Below, piece after piece: positions 1 through 16,692 of a stretch of DNA of 32,000 bases; the first letter of the stretch is position 1, and each line of letters opens with the position of its first letter. This DNA is from Phycisphaera mikurensis NBRC 102666 (lineage in GTDB: Bacteria; Planctomycetota; Phycisphaerae; Phycisphaerales; Phycisphaeraceae). Location: the NCBI RefSeq assembly GCF_000284115.1, contig NC_017080.1, positions 1,200,001-1,232,000 on the forward strand. The letters are read 5' to 3'. Under the pieces are notes generated by a model. That model was not told where the DNA came from and searched no databases. It worked only from the letters and a program-made list of their open reading frames with translations. Both the position numbers and the translations under genes were made by a program.

Positions 1-870
<870 letters not shown>

Positions 871-892
871 GGGGGGCTTCGACAGGCAGGCG

Positions 893-948
893 AAGAAGCG
901 GGGAAGCGGGGAAGCGAAGAAGCGGGGAAGCGAAGAAGCGAAGAAGCG
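893..948. repeat. Tandem 8-bp-period repeat, seven units RRGAAGCG (aagaagcg / gggaagcg)
   Basis: Read directly: 893 aagaagcg gggaagcg gggaagcg aagaagcg gggaagcg aagaagcg aagaagcg 948, just after the glmS stop. It is preceded by a small hairpin, cttcg-acaggcagg-cgaag (877-895). The same GAAGNGNN periodicity recurs at 12201-12490 and 16476-16674. Confidence 0.85.
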
Positions 949-1515
949 GCCTGTGCCGGGGCCTGGACACCGGCCTGTGCCGGGGCCTGGACACCGCGTA
1001 CCCGCGTACCCGCGTACTGGGGCCTGGACACCGCGTACCGGGGCCTGGACACCGCGTACCGGGCCTCGAGAACATGGCCTGCGGGGTGCCGGGGGTGCCG
1101 GGGCCTGGACACCGCGGCCTGTGCCGGGGCCTGGACACCGCGTATCCGGAGATGAAGCACGGCCCGATCGCGCTGATCGACGAGGGCATGCCGGTGGTGT
1201 TCGTCGCGACCGGCGGCAGCCAGTACAGCAAGGTGATCTCCAACATCGGCCTGTGCCGGGGCCTGGCCTGTGCCGAGGCCTGGACACCGCGTACCCGCGT
1301 ACCGGCGTACCGGGGCCTGCGGCGTACCGGGGCCTGGACACCGCGTACCGGGCCTCGAGAACGTGGCCTGTGCCGGGGCCTGGACACCGCGTACCCGCGT
1401 ACCCGCGTACCGTACCGGGGCCTGGACACCGCGTACCGGGCCTCGAGAACGTGGCCTGTGCCGGGCCTGTGCCGGGGCCTGGACACCGCGTGGTGGACAC
1501 CGCGTGGGGACACTG
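949..1515. repeat. Mosaic GC-rich tandem repeat array (REP-like modules), interrupted by a glmS fragment
   Basis: Built from a few modules: GGCCTGTGCCGG, GGCCTGGACACCGCGTACC, CGCGTACC and GGGCCTCGAGAAC(A/G)TGGCCTG. A higher-order unit of roughly 90 bp recurs (about 968-1080 and 1365-1458). ORFs crossing it on both strands (953.., 1074.., 1270.. +; 767.., 795.. -) translate to repetitive PGPGHRV / RGLDTAY strings and are not credible proteins here. Confidence 0.85.
1147..1248 (+). other. Duplicated internal fragment of glmS (copy of nt 542-643) embedded in the repeat array
   Basis: The 102-nt stretch cggagatgaagcacggcccgatcgcgct[g]atcgacgagggcatgccggtggtgttcgtcgcgaccggcggcagccagtacagcaaggtgatctccaacatcg matches glmS 542-643. 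There is one difference (c at 570 vs g at 1175, synonymous Leu). It is flanked on both sides by GGCCTGTGCCGGGGCCTGGACACCGCGTA repeat units. Confidence 0.9.
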
Positions 1516-1621
1516 CATCAGGCCGCAACACCGCAGGGGGCGTTGCTTCTTCGAGACGGTTTCTGTACGGTCCTCCTGCCGGGTCGCCCGACCCGCTTCT
1601 CGCTCCTTCCGGAGGCTCCCT

Positions 1622-2626: not shown

Positions 2627-2820
2627 CGCCAGCGGATCCAGGCTCCAGCGTCCCCGGCCGGTAGGCTGGCGGGTGTGTCATGCGCCACGCCAGCGGCATC
2701 ACCCAAACGCGAGAGCCGCGCGGGCTCGCGAACGGCTGGCGCTTGCCCGCGAGGACGCGGGAGGCCGCGCAGGATGCTCCGAGCGGTCCGATCCGCGTCG
2801 GATGTGGAGGGGGCACCCGG

Positions 2821-2840
2821 ACGGTGTCCAGGCCCCGGCA
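2821..2840 (-). repeat. Inverted copy of the array module TGCCGGGGCCTGGACACCG
   Basis: acggtgtccaggccccggca is the reverse complement of tgccggggcctggacaccgt, the dominant module of the 949-1515 array. Paralog 1 is therefore flanked by oppositely oriented copies. Confidence 0.7.
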
Positions 2841-2855
2841 GATCGCCTTCCAGGA

Positions 2856-4595
2856 ATGCACGACGGATACGACTTCGAGGCGAGCGGCAACTTGCGGCTC
2901 TGGAAGGCGGAGGGTGACTCCGCGGGTCGCTCGTTGGAGCACTACATCCAACCCGCTGAGGAGTACTCCCTTCAAGACCTTGGACTTGAAGAGGCCGGTT
3001 CCACGGTGAAGTTGTACTTGGAGGCGCTCGGGAACACCTCGTCTTGGTGGTTCGGTCCCAACAACGACAGCACGTGGCAGTGGAACAACCCGACCTCGCC
3101 GCAGGCGATCAGCGTCCATGCCGAGCATGAGGATCTTCGGACTCAGATCGGTGACAGCGTCCTGGTGAAACCCATGCTGGTGGATCTGCGGATCGACAGC
3201 GACAACGACGGGACGCTGTCTCTGCGGGATGAAGCACTCGAACAAGCAGAGCCGGGCATCGCGCCCGGTGCATGGTGGGTCATCAACAACGACGACTCAG
3301 ATTCCGACCTCTGGGTCCCGGACTACGCCGACGGTTACGGACTCGCCGCCGCGAAGGGCACCGCCGTCAACGCCGAGGCCGACCAAGTTTCCAACGAGGA
3401 CGAGTTTTACAAGATCAGCACCGACTTCACGAGATACGCGGGCAACGATGCAGAGCGCCTGAAGGTCCGCTTTAACTACGATGCAAACGATCCGATCGCT
3501 GGTGTGCAATTCGATGGCACGCAAGGCTACCGGATCGTTGACGGCGGGCTAATCCGCATCTGGACCACGGACGCTGCGGATCCAGGCCGCGACGGACGGA
3601 AGCTTCAGGACGGCGGAAGTGTCATCGAGAGCGGGTACGCGTACAGCGTCAGCGACCTCCCGGCCGCGGGCCTTTATCTCGAGAGTGTCGCCAGTTCCGG
3701 CTCCCTCGCGGACCTCGACGTGCTGGTGGAGTACCTGCTGGACGGCGTCGTCTTTGCGTCGGACCGCGTCGCAGGCACGAGCGTGGCTTCCAAAGCAGGA
3801 TTCACCACCCAGGCGTTGCAGCGGGCACGCATCAACCCCGACACCTGGGCGCCGCTGGCAGGCTTCCCGTTCAACCAAAACACGGTGCAAGCGGTCTACG
3901 ACTACTACCGCGACACCTACCTTGCCAACCAAGACGACTTCGTCTGGCTGGGCATGGCTCGGATGGCGGGAGGTGCGGTGTGGGACGGGCTCATTACAGG
4001 CGAGCAGGCAATCACCCTCCTTCGTGCGGCGCTTGCCAACCCGCTACAGACTTGGCAGGATCGGCTCGGAAACCTCTATGCACTAGAGATAGCAGAACGG
4101 CAGCAAGTCATGTTCGTCGAGATGCAGAAGGCGATCTTCGAAGATCTCGCATGGCAGCATGAACTTTACGCTGATGCTGGATACGCTGCGTTCGAGATCT
4201 TGAGGACTCATACGCCGAAGGATGTACCTTCCGACGTAGATACCGTATGGAAGCAGATCGATGCGGGTGATGTAGTCAGGGGTAATTTCGCACTGGTCCC
4301 TCGCGAGCAGAACTACATCCTGCAACCTTACTGGGATCAGTTCACGGCCGCCTTTGGCATGCAAGGCGTCGTCATCGGGCAGGGAACAAGGTCTCCGCTG
4401 CCGAACGGGCTCCCATTTGCGTCAACACCGGGGCTCGGCCTCTTCCCGAATGTCGCGTGGTGGCCAGACCGTGAACGGTGGATCGAGCTCGACATGTGGC
4501 CGAAATGGTTGGACTACATCAAACGGGAGCGGGCTGATCTCGTCAAAGCTGGCCTCGGAACGCAGTTAGGGCCGGCGTTCGTCAGCCCAATCTGA
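2856..4595 (+). CDS. Hypothetical large cargo protein (579 aa), Asp-rich DxDxDG-type motif, no signal peptide; function unknown
   Basis: Long ORF with protein-like composition and lower GC than the flanks (line 4081-4140 is 31/60 G+C). ATG at 2856 coincides with the onset of the GC drop. Contains LRIDSDNDGTLSL (DxDxDG-like Ca-binding loop) and VINNDDSDSDLWVPDYADGYG. The C-terminal region FVWLGMARMAGGAVWDGL...IFEDLAWQHELY is not recognised by me. The start (2802 or 2856) is uncertain. Confidence 0.7.
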   Translation: MHDGYDFEASGNLRLWKAEGDSAGRSLEHYIQPAEEYSLQDLGLEEAGSTVKLYLEALGNTSSWWFGPNNDSTWQWNNPTSPQAISVHAEHEDLRTQIGDSVLVKPMLVDLRIDSDNDGTLSLRDEALEQAEPGIAPGAWWVINNDDSDSDLWVPDYADGYGLAAAKGTAVNAEADQVSNEDEFYKISTDFTRYAGNDAERLKVRFNYDANDPIAGVQFDGTQGYRIVDGGLIRIWTTDAADPGRDGRKLQDGGSVIESGYAYSVSDLPAAGLYLESVASSGSLADLDVLVEYLLDGVVFASDRVAGTSVASKAGFTTQALQRARINPDTWAPLAGFPFNQNTVQAVYDYYRDTYLANQDDFVWLGMARMAGGAVWDGLITGEQAITLLRAALANPLQTWQDRLGNLYALEIAERQQVMFVEMQKAIFEDLAWQHELYADAGYAAFEILRTHTPKDVPSDVDTVWKQIDAGDVVRGNFALVPREQNYILQPYWDQFTAAFGMQGVVIGQGTRSPLPNGLPFASTPGLGLFPNVAWWPDRERWIELDMWPKWLDYIKRERADLVKAGLGTQLGPAFVSPI

Positions 4596-4635
4596 GCCTA
4601 GAGACTAAGCGATCCTCGATGAGGACAAAATTCCG

Positions 4636-5232
4636 ATGATCTGCGACTTGACCTCTTCGGTGTTCTCCCTCACGTTTGCCTTCGTCATCGCGACAGCAAC
4701 CGGCTGCGGGAAGATGGAGAAACCTCCCGTTGAGATTGTTGTTCGGACGCTGGAGGATCGGTGGCTGGATGCAAGCCCACCGTTCCGGACCCTTGAGTGG
4801 ACTGGGTTTACAGTCAATTCAAGCCACGAGGCGGGTATAGTAACGATTGGTCCTCCGGATATGACAGCACCCGTGGCCCGATATGCCTATCGAACAGTTT
4901 ACAAGAAGGAGCGATGGTCGCCCGAGAGCCTCGGCTACTACCTCTTCGCGGGTCGGGATGTCATGGAAGCACCGGAGGTCTCTGAACTCGCACTCAGCCT
5001 CATCCGAGCGACGGGCCGGACGGTCAGCGAGCGAGAGGCCACGGCATTAGAAGAACTCGTCACCGGGATCGCATACCGAGAGATCAGCGACGGCTCGGCG
5101 AGCCTCTCGATCTACAAAGACCTGGACACACCCAACGGGATCTCGCTCGACGTCTCCAGGCGCCCGCGGGGCAAGCCCGAGCTGACCCTCGATCTCTACC
5201 TGAGGATCTCGGACCCCGACCCGCTGTGGTGA
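4636..5232 (+). CDS. Hypothetical small exported (lipoprotein-like) cargo protein
   Basis: ATG at 4636 preceded by GAGGA (4620-4624). N-terminus MICDLTSSVFSLTFAFVIATATGCGK has a hydrophobic h-region ending in Cys (non-canonical lipobox ATGC). Low GC like the upstream gene (line 4621-4680 is 31/60 G+C). Confidence 0.7.
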   Translation: MICDLTSSVFSLTFAFVIATATGCGKMEKPPVEIVVRTLEDRWLDASPPFRTLEWTGFTVNSSHEAGIVTIGPPDMTAPVARYAYRTVYKKERWSPESLGYYLFAGRDVMEAPEVSELALSLIRATGRTVSEREATALEELVTGIAYREISDGSASLSIYKDLDTPNGISLDVSRRPRGKPELTLDLYLRISDPDPLW

Positions 5233-5288
5233 CCGCCTCCAGGAGCGGTTTCCCGTGACACTGGATATCGGTCGCTGATGGAGACGCC

Positions 5289-5450
5289 ATGCACTGTGTT
5301 CCTCTTCGTGTCGCCGTTGTCGTCCTGACGGGCGCTCTTGGGCTCCCCGTCGCCGCCGAGCGTGTGGCGGAAGCCGTTGACAGCGGAGCGTCCCCGGTCG
5401 AAGGAGCAGAGCAATCCACCGGAGGAGGCTTCGACTTTAGGAACATGTAG
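5289..5450 (+). CDS. Possible 53-aa secreted peptide (below the ORF-track length cutoff)
   Basis: Hand translation: MHCVPLRVAVVVLTGALGLPVAAERVAEAVDSGASPVEGAEQSTGGGFDFRNM, then TAG at 5448-5450. The N-terminus is signal-peptide-like and codon usage resembles the low-GC cargo. No homology recognised. Confidence 0.2.
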   Translation: MHCVPLRVAVVVLTGALGLPVAAERVAEAVDSGASPVEGAEQSTGGGFDFRNM

Positions 5451-5536
5451 GAACATGGGGTCAAGCCCCTTGCAGAGGTGCTATGGTGCCGTCGCCGAGT
5501 TGCCTCCCGCTCTCCCGCTCCTCCCACACCGCTCCC

Positions 5537-6622
5537 ATGGCCCGCTCTCTCCGCCACCAGATCCTGCCTGACGCCACCTGCGTCGTCCATGTTGTGTCGA
5601 AGATCTCGCGGTCGCTTCACTTGCTGGTGCCCGATGAGGATCGTGCCGGCGCCGGTGCCGTTGGCGACGCGGCCGAGCACCCCGACCTCCGCAAGGAGCT
5701 GCTGCTGCAGCGGCTGGAGACGCTGGCGGAGCAGACCTCGATCTCGGTATGCGGGTTCGCGGTGATGGACAACCACGTCCACCTGATCCTGCGGCGGGAC
5801 AAGGAGGAGGCCGCGGCGTGGTCAGCGGCGGAGGTGGTGGGGCGGTGGCTCGCGTTGCACCCCAAGCGGAATCGGGCGCGGCAGCCGGTGGAGACGCCGG
5901 AGGAGGACCTGGCGGCGATGGTGGCGGACGCGGGCCTGGTGGAGGCGCTGCGTGGAAAGCTGTCGAGCGTCTCGCAGTTCATGAAGGACCTCAAGCAGCG
6001 GACCGCGGAGGCGGTGAACAAGTTGGAAGGCCGCGGCGGGCGGCTCTGGGACGGGACGTTCAAGAGCAAGCTGATCGAGGACCAGGAGCAGCTGGTGGCG
6101 ACGATGGTGTACGTGGACTTGAACCCCTTCGCGGCGGGGGTGTGCGAGACGCCCGAAGAGGGCCGCCACACCTCGCTGGCGGGGCGGCTGGGGCGGGACG
6201 AGCCGGCGGGGGAGGTGAGCAAGCCCGCAGGATCCGCGGACCGCGACCGGGAGGAGGCCTCGGAGGCCGGCGGTCCGCGGGTTGGTCTGCGGTTGCCACG
6301 GCGGAGGTCCAGCGGGGCCTGGCTGCGGCCGCTGGACGAGTCGGCCCAGCGGGCGCGGAAGCGTGGGCAACGGCGGCACCCGCGAGGGCGGGCGGGGCTG
6401 AAAGCGGAGGCCGCGGGAACGGTGAGCCCGGGGCTGTCGCTGCAGATCTACCTGCGGATTCTCGACGCGGTCAGCCGCAAGCTGCGGGCGGGCAAGAAAC
6501 GCCTTGCGGCGGGCACGGCCAGCGTCTTCGAGCGGCTGAACCTGGACGCCGACGCGGTGGTCGGGCGGGTGCTGGCGATGGCGCAGCGGGACGGGCTGGC
6601 GGTGGCGGGCCGGGGCAGCTGA
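5537..6622 (+). CDS. HUH/Y1 single-strand DNA transposase-like protein (IS200/IS605 TnpA / RayT-like), paralog 2
   Basis: HUH motif in FAVMDNHVHLIL; LWDGTFKSKLI; MVYVDLNPFAAGV. Collinear with paralog 1 across the N-terminal ~220 aa, and C-terminal LQIYLRILDAVSRKLRAGK parallels LRRYLRLVDAVSRLLRAGK. ATG 5537 is preferred over ATG 5483 by paralog alignment. TGA at 6620-6622. Confidence 0.8.
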   Translation: MARSLRHQILPDATCVVHVVSKISRSLHLLVPDEDRAGAGAVGDAAEHPDLRKELLLQRLETLAEQTSISVCGFAVMDNHVHLILRRDKEEAAAWSAAEVVGRWLALHPKRNRARQPVETPEEDLAAMVADAGLVEALRGKLSSVSQFMKDLKQRTAEAVNKLEGRGGRLWDGTFKSKLIEDQEQLVATMVYVDLNPFAAGVCETPEEGRHTSLAGRLGRDEPAGEVSKPAGSADRDREEASEAGGPRVGLRLPRRRSSGAWLRPLDESAQRARKRGQRRHPRGRAGLKAEAAGTVSPGLSLQIYLRILDAVSRKLRAGKKRLAAGTASVFERLNLDADAVVGRVLAMAQRDGLAVAGRGS

Positions 6623-6627
6623 ACCGA

Positions 6628-6750
6628 GCTCGCCGGGGCCTGGCTACCTCGCAGGAGGCGTTGCTTCTTCCGAACGGATCCGCCGGGCTCGCCGGGGCCT
6701 GGACACTGTCCGGGTCGGGCCTGCCAGGGCCTGCCCGGGCCTGCCGGGCA
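6628..6750. repeat. Repeat cluster related to the 949-1515 array
   Basis: gctcgccggggcctgg occurs twice (6628-6643 and 6688-6703). gccggggcctggacac (6691-6706) matches the array module. It is followed by ggcctgccagggcctgcccgggcctgccggg reiterations (6718-6748). Confidence 0.7.
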
Positions 6751-10922: not shown

Positions 10923-12187
10923 GCCGGCAGCGCCGCCGAGGAGGCCGGCCCCGAGGCGGCCGGCACGCTCTCCGCGGCGAGGGACAGGAAGCTGCGGCGG
11001 TACGACGACCACGCCAGCAGCGCCATCGCGGGCACCGCGAGCGTGCCGGCGCCGGGCCAGAGCTGCACGAAGATCAGCAAGAGGTAGCCCAGCCGCACGC
11101 CCCACCGCACCAGCAGCGTGCGGCCGCGCGGCAGGTAGCGGCGGTACGGGGCGATCAGCGCCAGCCGGTACAGGATGATGCCGGGGATGAGCCCGACGAC
11201 CGGCACCGCCGAGAGGCCGGCGCACGCCGCGAGCACCCACGGCAGCCGGGCCTTCACGTGGGCATCGAGGCCGGCGACGTCGGCCGTGCCCGCGAAGGCG
11301 GGGCGGCCGCAGAGGCGGCAGTCCTGCTCGGGGTGCCGCTCGCGGAGCGAGGCGGCGCAGACCCCGCACCGGTGCACCGCCCGCAGCGAGGCCGCGTGGT
11401 CCCGCCGGTCCCCCACGCGCTGCATCTTCGGGCCGCCCAGCAGCCCGACCCGCTCGGCGTCGGGCCGCTCCACGCCGCAGTGCGGGCAACGCAGCGCCGC
11501 CCGGGGCACGTCGTCGCCGCAGGCGTCGCACGCGACGCGGCTTCTCGCCTCCCGCCGCCTGGACCGGGCGTACATCAGCAGAACCACGCACGACGCGATC
11601 ACGACCAGCGCCGCGACCACGACCGGGAAGAGCACGAGCAGGAAGACCCCGAAGACCGACCAGAGGTCCTCGCCCCAGCTGAACAGGCCCAAGAGCCCGG
11701 TGTCGTCGTCCGCGTCGAGCTCCGAAGCGTCGGACAGAACCGCCCGGCGGGCGACCGCGAGGAGGAACGTGCCCGCCGCGACGGCGAGCACCAGCAAGCC
11801 GGTGAAGCCGAGGCCCGCCTGCGCCGGGAGCGACGCCGCGGCCACCCCCTCCGCCGCCGGCCACCCGCCCGCGGCCGACACCAGGCCCGCCACGCCCAGC
11901 GCCGCCGACACCGGCTTCACGTAGGGGTCCAGCTCGTTGAGGATCTCCCGCGCCCCGCCGCTCTTGTGGGCCACCAGCTCGAGCGCCGAAAGCGTTCCCA
12001 GCACCGCGATCGACAGGTCCGAGGTCAGCCAGCCCGGCGCCGCGTCCACCGGCAGCCCCGCGAGCAGCCCGAGCGTCCCGAGCAGCGGGACGTCGGGCCC
12101 GAACCGCACCGCGAGCGCCACCGCGAACAGCGGCAGGAACACCCGGGAGGCGAACAGGGCGGGAAGCGAGAGGGCGGGGAGGAGCAT
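10919..12187 (-). CDS. DUF4126-like membrane protein with an internal double zinc-ribbon segment
   Basis: N-terminal helices MLLPALSLPALFASRVFLPLFAVALAVRFG...LGLLAGL. Central Cys pairs CDACGDDVPRAALRCPHCG and CGVCAASLRERHPEQDCRLCG. C-terminal helices. ATG at 12187 is preferred over TTG at 12202. Confidence 0.65.
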   Translation of the reverse strand: MLLPALSLPALFASRVFLPLFAVALAVRFGPDVPLLGTLGLLAGLPVDAAPGWLTSDLSIAVLGTLSALELVAHKSGGAREILNELDPYVKPVSAALGVAGLVSAAGGWPAAEGVAAASLPAQAGLGFTGLLVLAVAAGTFLLAVARRAVLSDASELDADDDTGLLGLFSWGEDLWSVFGVFLLVLFPVVVAALVVIASCVVLLMYARSRRREARSRVACDACGDDVPRAALRCPHCGVERPDAERVGLLGGPKMQRVGDRRDHAASLRAVHRCGVCAASLRERHPEQDCRLCGRPAFAGTADVAGLDAHVKARLPWVLAACAGLSAVPVVGLIPGIILYRLALIAPYRRYLPRGRTLLVRWGVRLGYLLLIFVQLWPGAGTLAVPAMALLAWSSYRRSFLSLAAESVPAASGPASSAALPA

Positions 12188-12200
12188 GGCTGCACCAGGC

Positions 12201-12490
12201 AAGCGAAGAAGCGAAGAAGATAGGAAGCGAAGAAGTCAGTCCGTCGCGCCATCGCTCCGCTCGGCGGCCTCCCCTCGGGTCGGCGAAGCCGACGCGTTGC
12301 CTGACTTCCCCACTTCGTCGCTTCCCCGCCTCCCCGCTTCCCCGCTTCCCCGCTTCCCCGCTTCCCCGCTTCCCCGCTTCCCCGCTTCCCCGCTTCTTCT
12401 CTTCTCCGCTTCCCCGCTTCTTCTCTTCTTCTCTTCTTCTCTTCTTCTCTTCTTCTCTTCTTCGCTTCTTCACTTCCCCGCTTCTCCACT
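12201..12490. repeat. 8-bp-period repeat element: short purine-rich arm, 61-nt core (12240-12300) containing a 15-nt hairpin, long CCCCGCTT / CTTCTCTT tandem array
   Basis: Left arm aagcgaagaagcgaagaagataggaagcgaagaagtcag (12201-12239). gaagtcag (12232-12239) is inverted at ctgacttc (12301-12308). Hairpin GTCGGC-GAA-GCCGAC at 12279-12293. This is followed by about 20 consecutive 8-mers (ccccgctt x8, cttctctt x5, variants) up to about 12490. Confidence 0.85.
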
Positions 12491-16475: not shown

Positions 16476-16674
16476 GAAGAGACGAAGAGACGGAGAGACG
16501 AAGAGACGAAGAGACGGAGACAGGCAGGGAGGAAAAGGGGGCCGCGGTCGGATCTGTCCGTCTTCGTCTCTTCGTCTCTTGCTCGCACCCCATCGGCCCG
16601 CGGATGTCTGCGGCGCGATCCCGACGCCGCGGCCCCCGAATCGGCTCGCCTCGCGCGTCTTCGTCTCTTCGTCC
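16476..16674. repeat. 8-bp-period repeat element forming a long imperfect palindrome (GAAGAGAC units) in a divergent intergenic region
   Basis: Left arm gaagagac gaagagac ggagagac gaagagac gaagagac ggagac (16476-16521). Spacer with caggcaggg (16521-16529). Right arm gtccgtcttc gtctcttc gtctcttg (16556-16581), complementary to the left units (15 of 16 nt for 16500-16515 vs 16566-16581). A further partial copy gtcttcgtctcttcgtcc lies at 16657-16674. Confidence 0.85.
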
Positions 16675-16692
16675 CCGCTCTACCTTCCGCCC

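Follow-up and report, generated by a model that had tools for sequence, protein, structure and literature searches.

A partial copy of glmS within an array of terminal motifs beside a RAYT-like HUH transposase gene in Phycisphaera mikurensis

In the planctomycete Phycisphaera mikurensis NBRC 102666, the 3' end of glmS is followed by an array of short repeats and then by a gene for a RAYT-like HUH transposase, and embedded in the array is a 102-bp copy of an internal segment of glmS. The window analysed here is the whole 32,000-nucleotide stretch of contig NC_017080.1 from position 1,200,001 to 1,232,000 (RefSeq assembly GCF_000284115.1, forward strand), and all coordinates below are counted from its first base unless a locus handle precedes them. 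The 102-bp segment is a genuine, evolutionarily recent partial copy of glmS, and the array that holds it is the amplified left-end motif (GGGGCCTGGACAC, core GGACAC) of a multi-copy HUH element. Sequence comparison suggests that the copy is the leading edge of a duplicated block rather than a lone insert, and we favour, with a probability of about one half, an origin of this block by host replication or repair in an unstable array. The copy is most likely a neutral scar and not the trace of a new capture system.

An internal segment of glmS is duplicated in the array

Direct comparison of the two segments bears out the duplication that a sequence-only reading of this DNA had reported. They differ at a single position, lie in direct orientation with a start-to-start spacing of 605 bp and the copy downstream, and their identity stops abruptly on each side, the flanking bases differing at both ends. 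Once array sequence and a pair of HUH paralogues are set aside, no other long duplication is found within the window. The distance between the glmS stop codon and the start of the copy is 277 bp, so that the 280 bp first given was about right.

The upstream reading frame is the 3' part of a glutamine-fructose-6-phosphate aminotransferase gene, with a third-position G+C fraction (GC3) of 0.98 in a window of 72.5% G+C. Its product matches the Pfam SIS family (E 3e-53) and aligns end to end with the isomerase domains of human GFAT1 and E. coli GlmS (E 1e-76 to 1e-77), and the peptide encoded by the donor segment matches, residue for residue, the ELKHGPLALVD... stretch that is conserved in the solved GlmS and GFAT enzymes. 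Because the segment belongs to the conserved SIS/isomerase domain, glmS is, on this comparison, the donor and the array the recipient; the array did not give the 102 bp to glmS, as the earlier reading had also held.

The sole mismatch lies at a third codon position (570 C in glmS, 1175 G in the copy; Leu CTC/CTG) and is synonymous in the glmS frame. From this the event had been taken to be very recent. The synonymy and the low divergence stand, whereas the step from synonymy to recency does not, as G is also found at this position in the glmS genes of both outgroups (2 of 2; 83-84% DNA identity over the segment). On this moderate evidence, which comprises two outgroups and concerns a third codon position, the substitution most likely arose in glmS after the duplication, and the array copy would be an unchanged fossil of an earlier allele. 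The substitution would then be synonymous because it probably happened in glmS, and its synonymy would say nothing on recency. In a homologue search the best GlmS relative was 83% identical. Neither an HUH gene nor this array was found 3' of glmS in the two outgroup relatives, where ordinary genes lie instead. In a related metagenome-assembled genome of the Phycisphaeraceae (L142, 1412-1500), glmS is followed by a short tandem repeat, CCCCCGGAAGTTC in two copies, and then by a hairpin rich in G+C. P. mikurensis is thus not alone in having repeats immediately 3' of glmS, and the HUH element is absent at the L142 locus.

The copy as the probable leading edge of a larger block

Four modules (GGCCTGTGCC, GGGGCCTGGACAC, CGCGTACC and GGCCTCGAGAACGTG) make up the mosaic that the array forms from 948 to 1515, in which modules of 8-15 nt are irregularly spaced. 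The fixed 29-nt repeat unit described earlier is a common combination of these modules and not a fixed repeat. On its left the copy abuts ...GGCCTGTGCC GGGGCCTGGACAC CGCGTAT C, and on its right GCCTGTGCC GGGGCCT...

The stretches of array on the two sides of the copy are collinear. A global alignment of 949-1146 with 1249-1437 runs over their full length with 165 matches, 8 mismatches and 5 gap runs, and its score of 245 compares with a mean of 129 (standard deviation 22) for shuffles of the modules, none of 2000 shuffles reaching 245. Among the registers tried, the best begins exactly at 1249, the first base past the fragment, and in blastn the pair 947-1149 and 1247-1439 is the top internal match of that stretch (E 1e-41). 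Because the arrays are collinear, the block 1147-1437 (~291 bp) can be read as a copy of (542-643)+(949-1146), and the fragment is probably the leading edge of this block and not an isolated insert. The earlier statement that it sits exactly between two repeat units is thus right in that array modules flank it on both sides, and is probably to be replaced by a description of it as the front of a collinear block. At 8/173, the density of substitutions in the array part does not significantly exceed the 1/102 of the glmS part (Fisher p = 0.16), which is consistent with compatible ages for the two.

Junctions and the favoured mechanism

The two junctions share a few bases with the sequences that they join, namely CGG on the left and CG on the right, as had been noted. 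At junction 1, array sequence ...CGCGTA(T)C[CGG] meets glmS ...GCCG[CGG]AGATG (the 3-nt overlap in brackets), and the end of unit 2, GTAC[CGG]GCCTCG, shows the array as it should have read at the breakpoint prior to the event. At junction 2, glmS ...AACAT[CG]AGG meets the boundary between the 8-mer and mosaic arrays, ...GAAG[CG]GCCTGTG, with an overlap of 2 nt. On base composition alone such overlaps have probabilities of 0.027 for CGG and 0.09 for CG, which is suggestive and in each case weak. The donor's left breakpoint, 541/542, is overlapped by an imperfect palindrome at 512-553, which is centred on GGCATGCC and whose arms of 25 nt are 80% complementary. Sequences of this quasi-palindromic kind are known to promote template switching.

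One replication error with two template switches would yield this arrangement. A nascent strand would have copied the array to 1146, re-annealed 605 nt upstream within glmS at the 3-nt match CGG, copied 102 nt of glmS, and then re-annealed 305 nt onward at the 2-nt match CG, at the first array base, to continue along the array. In the simplest history the same product, the block 1147-1437, would arise in two steps: 542-1146 (605 bp) was duplicated in tandem, and 644-948 (305 bp) was then lost. The donor is kept, the copy is direct and nearby, the homology is short and there is no target-site duplication of fixed length, all of which is expected of duplication at microhomologies. The suggestion of template switching or microhomology-mediated capture was therefore a reasonable one, although a small segmental duplication, with an internal deletion or a second switch, describes the event better.

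Host replication or repair would need no further agent at such a site. Because it contains many short direct repeats, the array is prone to slippage and template switching, and elsewhere within it there are many irregular short-homology joints and local duplications of 8-24 nt. In E. coli, long-distance template switching has been held responsible for tandem duplications whose endpoints share a few G-rich bases (Slack et al. 2006, PMC1428787). Compared by k-mers with the whole window, the array yielded no captured fragment besides that of glmS, all other matches being to array or element motifs. Searches of glmS for the terminal motif of the element (GGGGCCTGGACACCG with up to 2 mismatches, GGCCTGGACAC with up to 1) gave no match, every match to these motifs lying in the array, at the element ends or kilobases off, and no recognition motif or significant hairpin was found at or near the glmS breakpoints.

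Short-period arrays are also found away from any HUH gene, at 12144-12487 and 16476-16580, and tandem arrays of period 8 seem to occur generally in this genome. Both regions contain 8-nt units in inverted pairs around a short unique centre, at 12188-12235 against 12305-12487 (GAAGCGAA/GAAGCGGG and the complement CTTCCCCG/CTTCTCTT) and at 16476-16523 against 16561-16580 and 16658-16675 (GAAGAGAC with its complement). These intergenic inverted arrays are of the unit type seen at 885-948 and would form very long hairpins. Taken together, arrays far from HUH genes, irregular joints within the array, the lack of an element motif in the donor and the lack of other foreign DNA favour host replication or repair, and we infer that this machinery rather than the transposase made the junctions.

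Several points weigh against this reading. Overlaps of 3 and 2 nt are weak evidence at 72.5% G+C, and an enzyme that cuts at CG would leave a similar picture; the junctions are known from one assembly. The array has a higher-order periodicity of ~100 nt with three homologous units (972-1076, 1265-1364 and 1365-1463), of which units 2 and 3 have a perfect match of 55 nt in common, so that the collinearity could reflect an older duplication within the array into which the 102 bp came later. The second halves of the two proposed duplication units, 949-1146 and 1249-1437, differ by a replacement (GGCCTGTGCC against CGCGTACC repeats), and the block duplication needs an additional event to account for this. 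Moreover, the arrays are located specifically at element ends in three loci (the window, L144 and L056, introduced below), and the transposase may contribute to their instability. For TnpAREP of E. coli, cleavage of low specificity at a distance has been described, and models have been proposed in which it sequesters fragments of flanking genes and amplifies BIMEs (PMC3333891). A host agent and the transposase are not separable by sequence alone, and the transposase may have had a part in the event. An attempt to tell enzyme cleavage from microhomology by the module boundaries was abandoned, as the phase of a tandem repeat is arbitrary.

The array is an amplified terminal motif of a multi-copy HUH element

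The gene beside the array encodes a single-strand transposase of the RAYT/IS200 kind, in agreement with the first identification. Residues H74 and H76 (NHLHLVLR) and Y187 (YVDLNP), the HUH motif and the single catalytic tyrosine, are invariant in 16 homologues. Profile matches to the 334-aa protein are below threshold, with 21.1 bits for Pfam PF01797 Y1_Tnp (cutoff 23) and 41.9 bits (E 8.5e-11) for NCBIfam NF047646 REP_Tyr_transpos (cutoff 80), and a profile search of PDB sequences returned IS200-type transposases only at E ~0.8. Foldseek with an AlphaFold2 model of the protein (mean predicted local distance difference test score, pLDDT, 76.9) gave as its top PDB match the E. coli RAYT bound to REP (4er8_A; E 2e-4, TM(target) 0.68), a match that spans the core only, the query being about twice the length of the target; ISDra2, IS608 and IS200 TnpA followed. 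Several copies of the gene exist in P. mikurensis, whose complete genome encodes at least four proteins that share more than 97% identity as well as paralogues that are less similar. At least 568 relatives were confirmed in a metagenome scan of up to 600 candidate stretches. Together they make up a widespread, uncharacterised branch within the Y1 HUH transposases, with proteins roughly double the size of RAYTs.

The motif that makes up the array recurs at the ends of the element. Against 0.28 expected by chance, GGGGCCTGGACACCG has 14 matches in the window, of which 11 lie in the array on the + strand and one, inverted, at 2822-2836 just 3' of the HUH gene; the array copies of the 19-mer TGCCGGGGCCTGGACACCG are perfectly inverted relative to 2822-2840, and the right-end motif forms an inverted repeat with every array motif. 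In L056, a metagenomic homologue with 72% identity, one motif lies upstream and three, inverted, downstream, and its left end has GCAGGGGG(C)GTTGC and GTACGGTCC in common with that of the window. Paralogue loci of P. mikurensis were reached in a second assembly as L143 and L144, the latter (GCA_014207395.1, JACHEL010000012.1) being a second copy of the element whose right end is followed by an inverted-motif array of ~300 nt, GACGGTGTCCAGGCCCCGGCAGATCC with the 10-nt sub-modules CCGGCAGATC/GGCAGACACC. Two element copies lie head-to-tail at L144 6001-7695, with the ~300-nt array between them. Arrays thus differ greatly between near-identical copies of the element.

The core of the motif can be followed much further. 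Among 80 distant metagenomic relatives (L061-L140, 28-41% identity), GGACAC is found upstream of the gene in 28 of 73 loci and GTGTCC in 4, while downstream the order is reversed, GTGTCC being found in 16 of 77 loci and GGACAC in 5. The bias in these hexamer counts indicates that an inverted GGACAC/GTGTCC terminal core is deeply conserved in this HUH family. Since the motif recurs at the right end, in L144, in L056 and, in its core, at distant loci, the array is to be understood as the amplified terminal motif of a mobile element.

The repeats are not REP sequences of the classical form, a candidate that was rejected as the units fold no better than shuffled sequence: the 31-nt unit gave z-scores of +1.3 and +1.2 on the two strands, and longer units reached -1.25 at best. 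No palindrome headed by GTAG or CGTC was seen in the array. The end regions likewise fold no better than shuffles and carry the inverted motif. A CRISPR array, in which identical repeats of 23-47 nt alternate regularly with numerous unique spacers that are alike in length and cas genes lie close by, was rejected on account of the one unique 102-nt insert and the irregular 8-15-nt modules; no Cas family was found among the neighbouring open reading frames scanned against Pfam, several of which had no Pfam match at all. An insertion of the Tn7 type 3' of glmS was rejected as well, as there was no Tn7 match in Pfam or NCBIfam among the neighbouring frames scanned. No donor for the module GGCCTCGAGAACGTG was found within the window, and a scan of a genome collection with CCGGGGCCTGGACACCGCG gave 55 single chance matches in unrelated genomes of high G+C, with no Phycisphaera among them.

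Some further repeats were seen at related loci. The left flank of L144 has additional repeated modules, with GCGGAAAAGGTGACAGCCACG twice, and longer flanking repeats are present at many of the distant loci (e.g. L070, L109, L121 and L125). In L056 (9780-10210, 6853-7473) a classical RAYT gene is truncated and adjoins the element's left end exactly after ...GACTGGCGGTGGG; the 3' part that this gene lacks did not turn up on the far side of the element, past its right end. The classical RAYT has an inverted flanking repeat (GGTCCGCGAAGGTGCCAGGTACATTCAA) and short tandem modules (GGGGTCCGCC) of its own.

Alternative origins of the junctions

Compared to host replication or repair, it is unlikely that the transposase itself made the junctions. 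In that case the RAYT-like enzyme, bound at its GGACAC motifs, would have cut single-stranded DNA at sites of low specificity in both array and glmS and rejoined the ends, priming from a cut 3'-OH to give the 605-bp duplication and excising between two cuts to give the 305-bp deletion, and the fragment would be the footprint of transposase-driven sequestration of flanking DNA. The gene does encode an HUH enzyme of the Y1 type, to which TnpAREP of E. coli is the nearest in fold among solved structures; the array motif is the terminal motif, conserved in the 72% homologue L056 and, in its core, across 80 distant loci; and motif arrays lie at element ends in three loci and are very different between near-identical copies. 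TnpAREP of E. coli cuts a bare CT dinucleotide, between its two bases, far from its binding site (PMC3333891), and all four of the breakpoints here (4/4) can be expressed as CG/R, the slash marking the break. In a genome of 72.5% G+C, however, CG/R is hardly more than the junction microhomology itself, and the glmS breakpoints have neither a recognition motif nor a significant hairpin near them. Short-period arrays form far from HUH genes too.

The claim that the array is an active site of single-stranded DNA capture is not supported. A second foreign fragment was sought without success in this array, in the array of ~300 nt at the right end of L144 and at the ends of L056, and a self-duplication screen of 85 related loci, a coarse one as the loci are mostly short and distant, found repeats flanking the element and no clear case of a gene fragment in an array. 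The idea is weakened further by the short tandem arrays that lie away from HUH genes in the same genome. That the enzyme itself made the junctions by cutting with low specificity far from its GGACAC sites and rejoining the ends, so that arrays would grow, shrink and now and then sequester pieces of neighbouring genes, appears unlikely to us.

A second alternative keeps to the original description of an isolated insertion. The array with its three ~100-nt units would have existed beforehand, and a template switch that went out to glmS and returned to the same spot would have added the 102 bp alone, with CG on either side and a unit boundary hit by chance. The three homologous units, and the 55-nt perfect match between units 2 and 3, fit this order of events; no replacement between the second halves of units is then required, and CG does flank the insert on both sides. 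It is nevertheless improbable, since the 189 nt after the fragment align best with the array from its first base, 949, which would make the register at 1249 a coincidence. It also takes one event more than the block duplication, and in the junction that it presumes before the insertion, CGCGTATCCGGCCTGTGCC, the GGCCTCGAGAACGTG module found ahead of the other unit starts is absent.

Assembly is difficult in repeat arrays, and as these junctions were read from one assembly, glmS reads might have been misjoined into the array. An artefact of this kind is very unlikely, because at its one differing base the copy agrees with both outgroups, the duplicated stretch of array has diverged (8 substitutions, 5 indels) in a way that a chimeric join would not, and both junctions fall at microhomologies in a consistent register. 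Least credible of all is a functional fragment, whose transcript would pair with or mimic glmS mRNA or which would serve the element as a homing or targeting sequence: it has the orientation of glmS, lies just upstream of the transposase gene, and all reading frames through the array are open, but open frames are expected of modules without a stop triplet in a genome of 72.5% G+C, no promoter-like site, terminator-like site or Rfam match was found in the array or its surroundings, other copies of the element have no such fragment, and long guide sequences are not known for HUH Y1 elements. We infer that the copy has no function.

Comparison with known systems

In its direct orientation, its nearby and retained donor and its junctions of a few G-rich bases, the block resembles tandem duplications that arise by template switching at microhomologies, in which multiple switches per product are typical and no special enzyme is needed. 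Events of the FoSTeS/MMBIR type (fork stalling and template switching; microhomology-mediated break-induced replication) are a related kind of template switching. The amplifications of E. coli (PMC1428787) differ in scale, spanning 7-32 kb with 4-15 bp of homology against 0.6 kb and 2-3 nt here; furthermore, at each junction described here one endpoint lies in a tandem array, and the event is deduced from a single genome. The intergenic repeat cluster as an endpoint of duplication has a parallel in Salmonella, where Shyamala et al. in 1990 reportedly found REP sequences at the join points of tandem duplications. Both endpoints of those duplications lie in REP sequences and the repeats give the homology, whereas here one endpoint of each junction lies in coding sequence and the overlap is 2-3 nt.

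The element shares with the REPtron (Nunvar 2010, PMC2817692; Ton-Hoang 2012, PMC3333891) a Y1 HUH gene flanked by inverted copies of a short motif, the occurrence of that motif in variable arrays, and the E. coli TnpAREP as closest solved structure; for the REPtron there are models in which the enzyme amplifies arrays and sequesters fragments of flanking genes. The protein differs from RAYTs in its length of 334 aa (about twice theirs), an insertion of ~95 aa between the HUH and Tyr motifs, a C-terminal extension and its sub-threshold scores. A REP is a palindromic hairpin of 20-40 nt, usually headed by GTAG or CGTC, whereas the motif unit here has no significant hairpin and no such head. The array units run head-to-tail rather than alternating, and the gene is multi-copy, unlike the REPtron with its single gene copy per genome and hundreds of dispersed REPs. 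With IS200/IS605 the element has in common the Y1 HUH chemistry, the multi-copy state with ends 92-94% identical between copies, and a model that resembles the ISDra2, IS608 and IS200 TnpA proteins. The ends of IS200/IS605 elements, however, are strand-specific and have subterminal hairpins and no terminal inverted repeats, in apparent contrast to the inverted GGACAC ... GTGTCC here; there is no TnpB, and the sequence score falls under the family thresholds. It is therefore best called a putative element like those of the RAYT and IS200 types, which departs from the formal definition of such elements in several respects.

Other features of the window

The coordinates of the features are collected in Table 1. 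The second, divergent HUH paralogue also scores below threshold (22.4 bits for Pfam Y1_Tnp, cutoff 23; 46.9 bits for NCBIfam REP_Tyr_transpos, cutoff 80). Directly after its stop codon, with no gene attached, lies a left-end remnant that is 94% identical to the left end of L144. A 25-nt inverted repeat, 2815-2839/6691-6715 (96% identical, with the right-end motif inside), brackets a segment of 3.9 kb, which contains a low-G+C island at 2850-5480 (55-65% against 72%), with two open reading frames without a Pfam or NCBIfam match, and also the second HUH paralogue. This segment may be a composite or cargo-carrying arrangement.

Table 1. Positions of glmS, array and HUH-element features in the window
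Feature	Position	Strand	Remarks
glmS, 3' part (glutamine-fructose-6-phosphate aminotransferase, isomerase/SIS domains)	1..870	+	stop codon 868-870
Donor segment within glmS	542..643	+	encodes (A) followed by 33 residues
8-nt tandem array GAAGCGGG/GAAGCGAA directly 3' of glmS	885..948	+	
Array part of duplication unit 1, modules GGCCTGTGCC, GGGGCCTGGACAC, CGCGTACC, GGCCTCGAGAACATG	949..1146	+	module parse
Copy of the glmS segment in the array	1147..1248	+	101/102 identical to 542-643
Array part of duplication unit 2, collinear with 949-1146	1249..1437	+	
Rest of array and variable part of element left end, GGACAC repeats beside the element	1438..1531	+	
			
Conserved left end of HUH element	1532..1621	+	92% identical to L144 5910-6000 and 7535-7626
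HUH Y1 transposase gene, RAYT-like, 334 aa	1622..2626	+	identical to BAM03177.1, Phycisphaera mikurensis NBRC 102666
Conserved right end, inverted motif CGGTGTCCAGGCCCCGGCA at 2822-2840	2627..2842	+	94% identical to L144 7006-7219
Second, divergent HUH paralogue	5537..6622	+	49% identical to the first gene (tblastn)
Solo left-end remnant (6624-6677) and inverted right-end-type motif (6691-6715)	6624..6715	+	

Significance

The event is an ordinary microhomology rearrangement of a known kind that took place within an uncharacterised family of elements, and the fragment, as a small neutral scar, is of little importance alone. It is an unusually legible case all the same, because a unique tag inside a repeat array exposes a block duplication with two microhomology junctions. 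The element family is of greater interest, comprising as it does long RAYT-like Y1 transposases with a conserved inverted GGACAC core and, in Phycisphaera, hypervariable terminal arrays. If the enzyme did make junctions such as these, the locus would be direct evidence, at the level of the genome, that a transposase drives the dynamics of arrays and captures flanking sequence, and would provide, in a new multi-copy branch, a natural in vivo footprint of the model of cleavage at a distance and sequestration that has so far come mainly from the biochemistry of E. coli TnpAREP.

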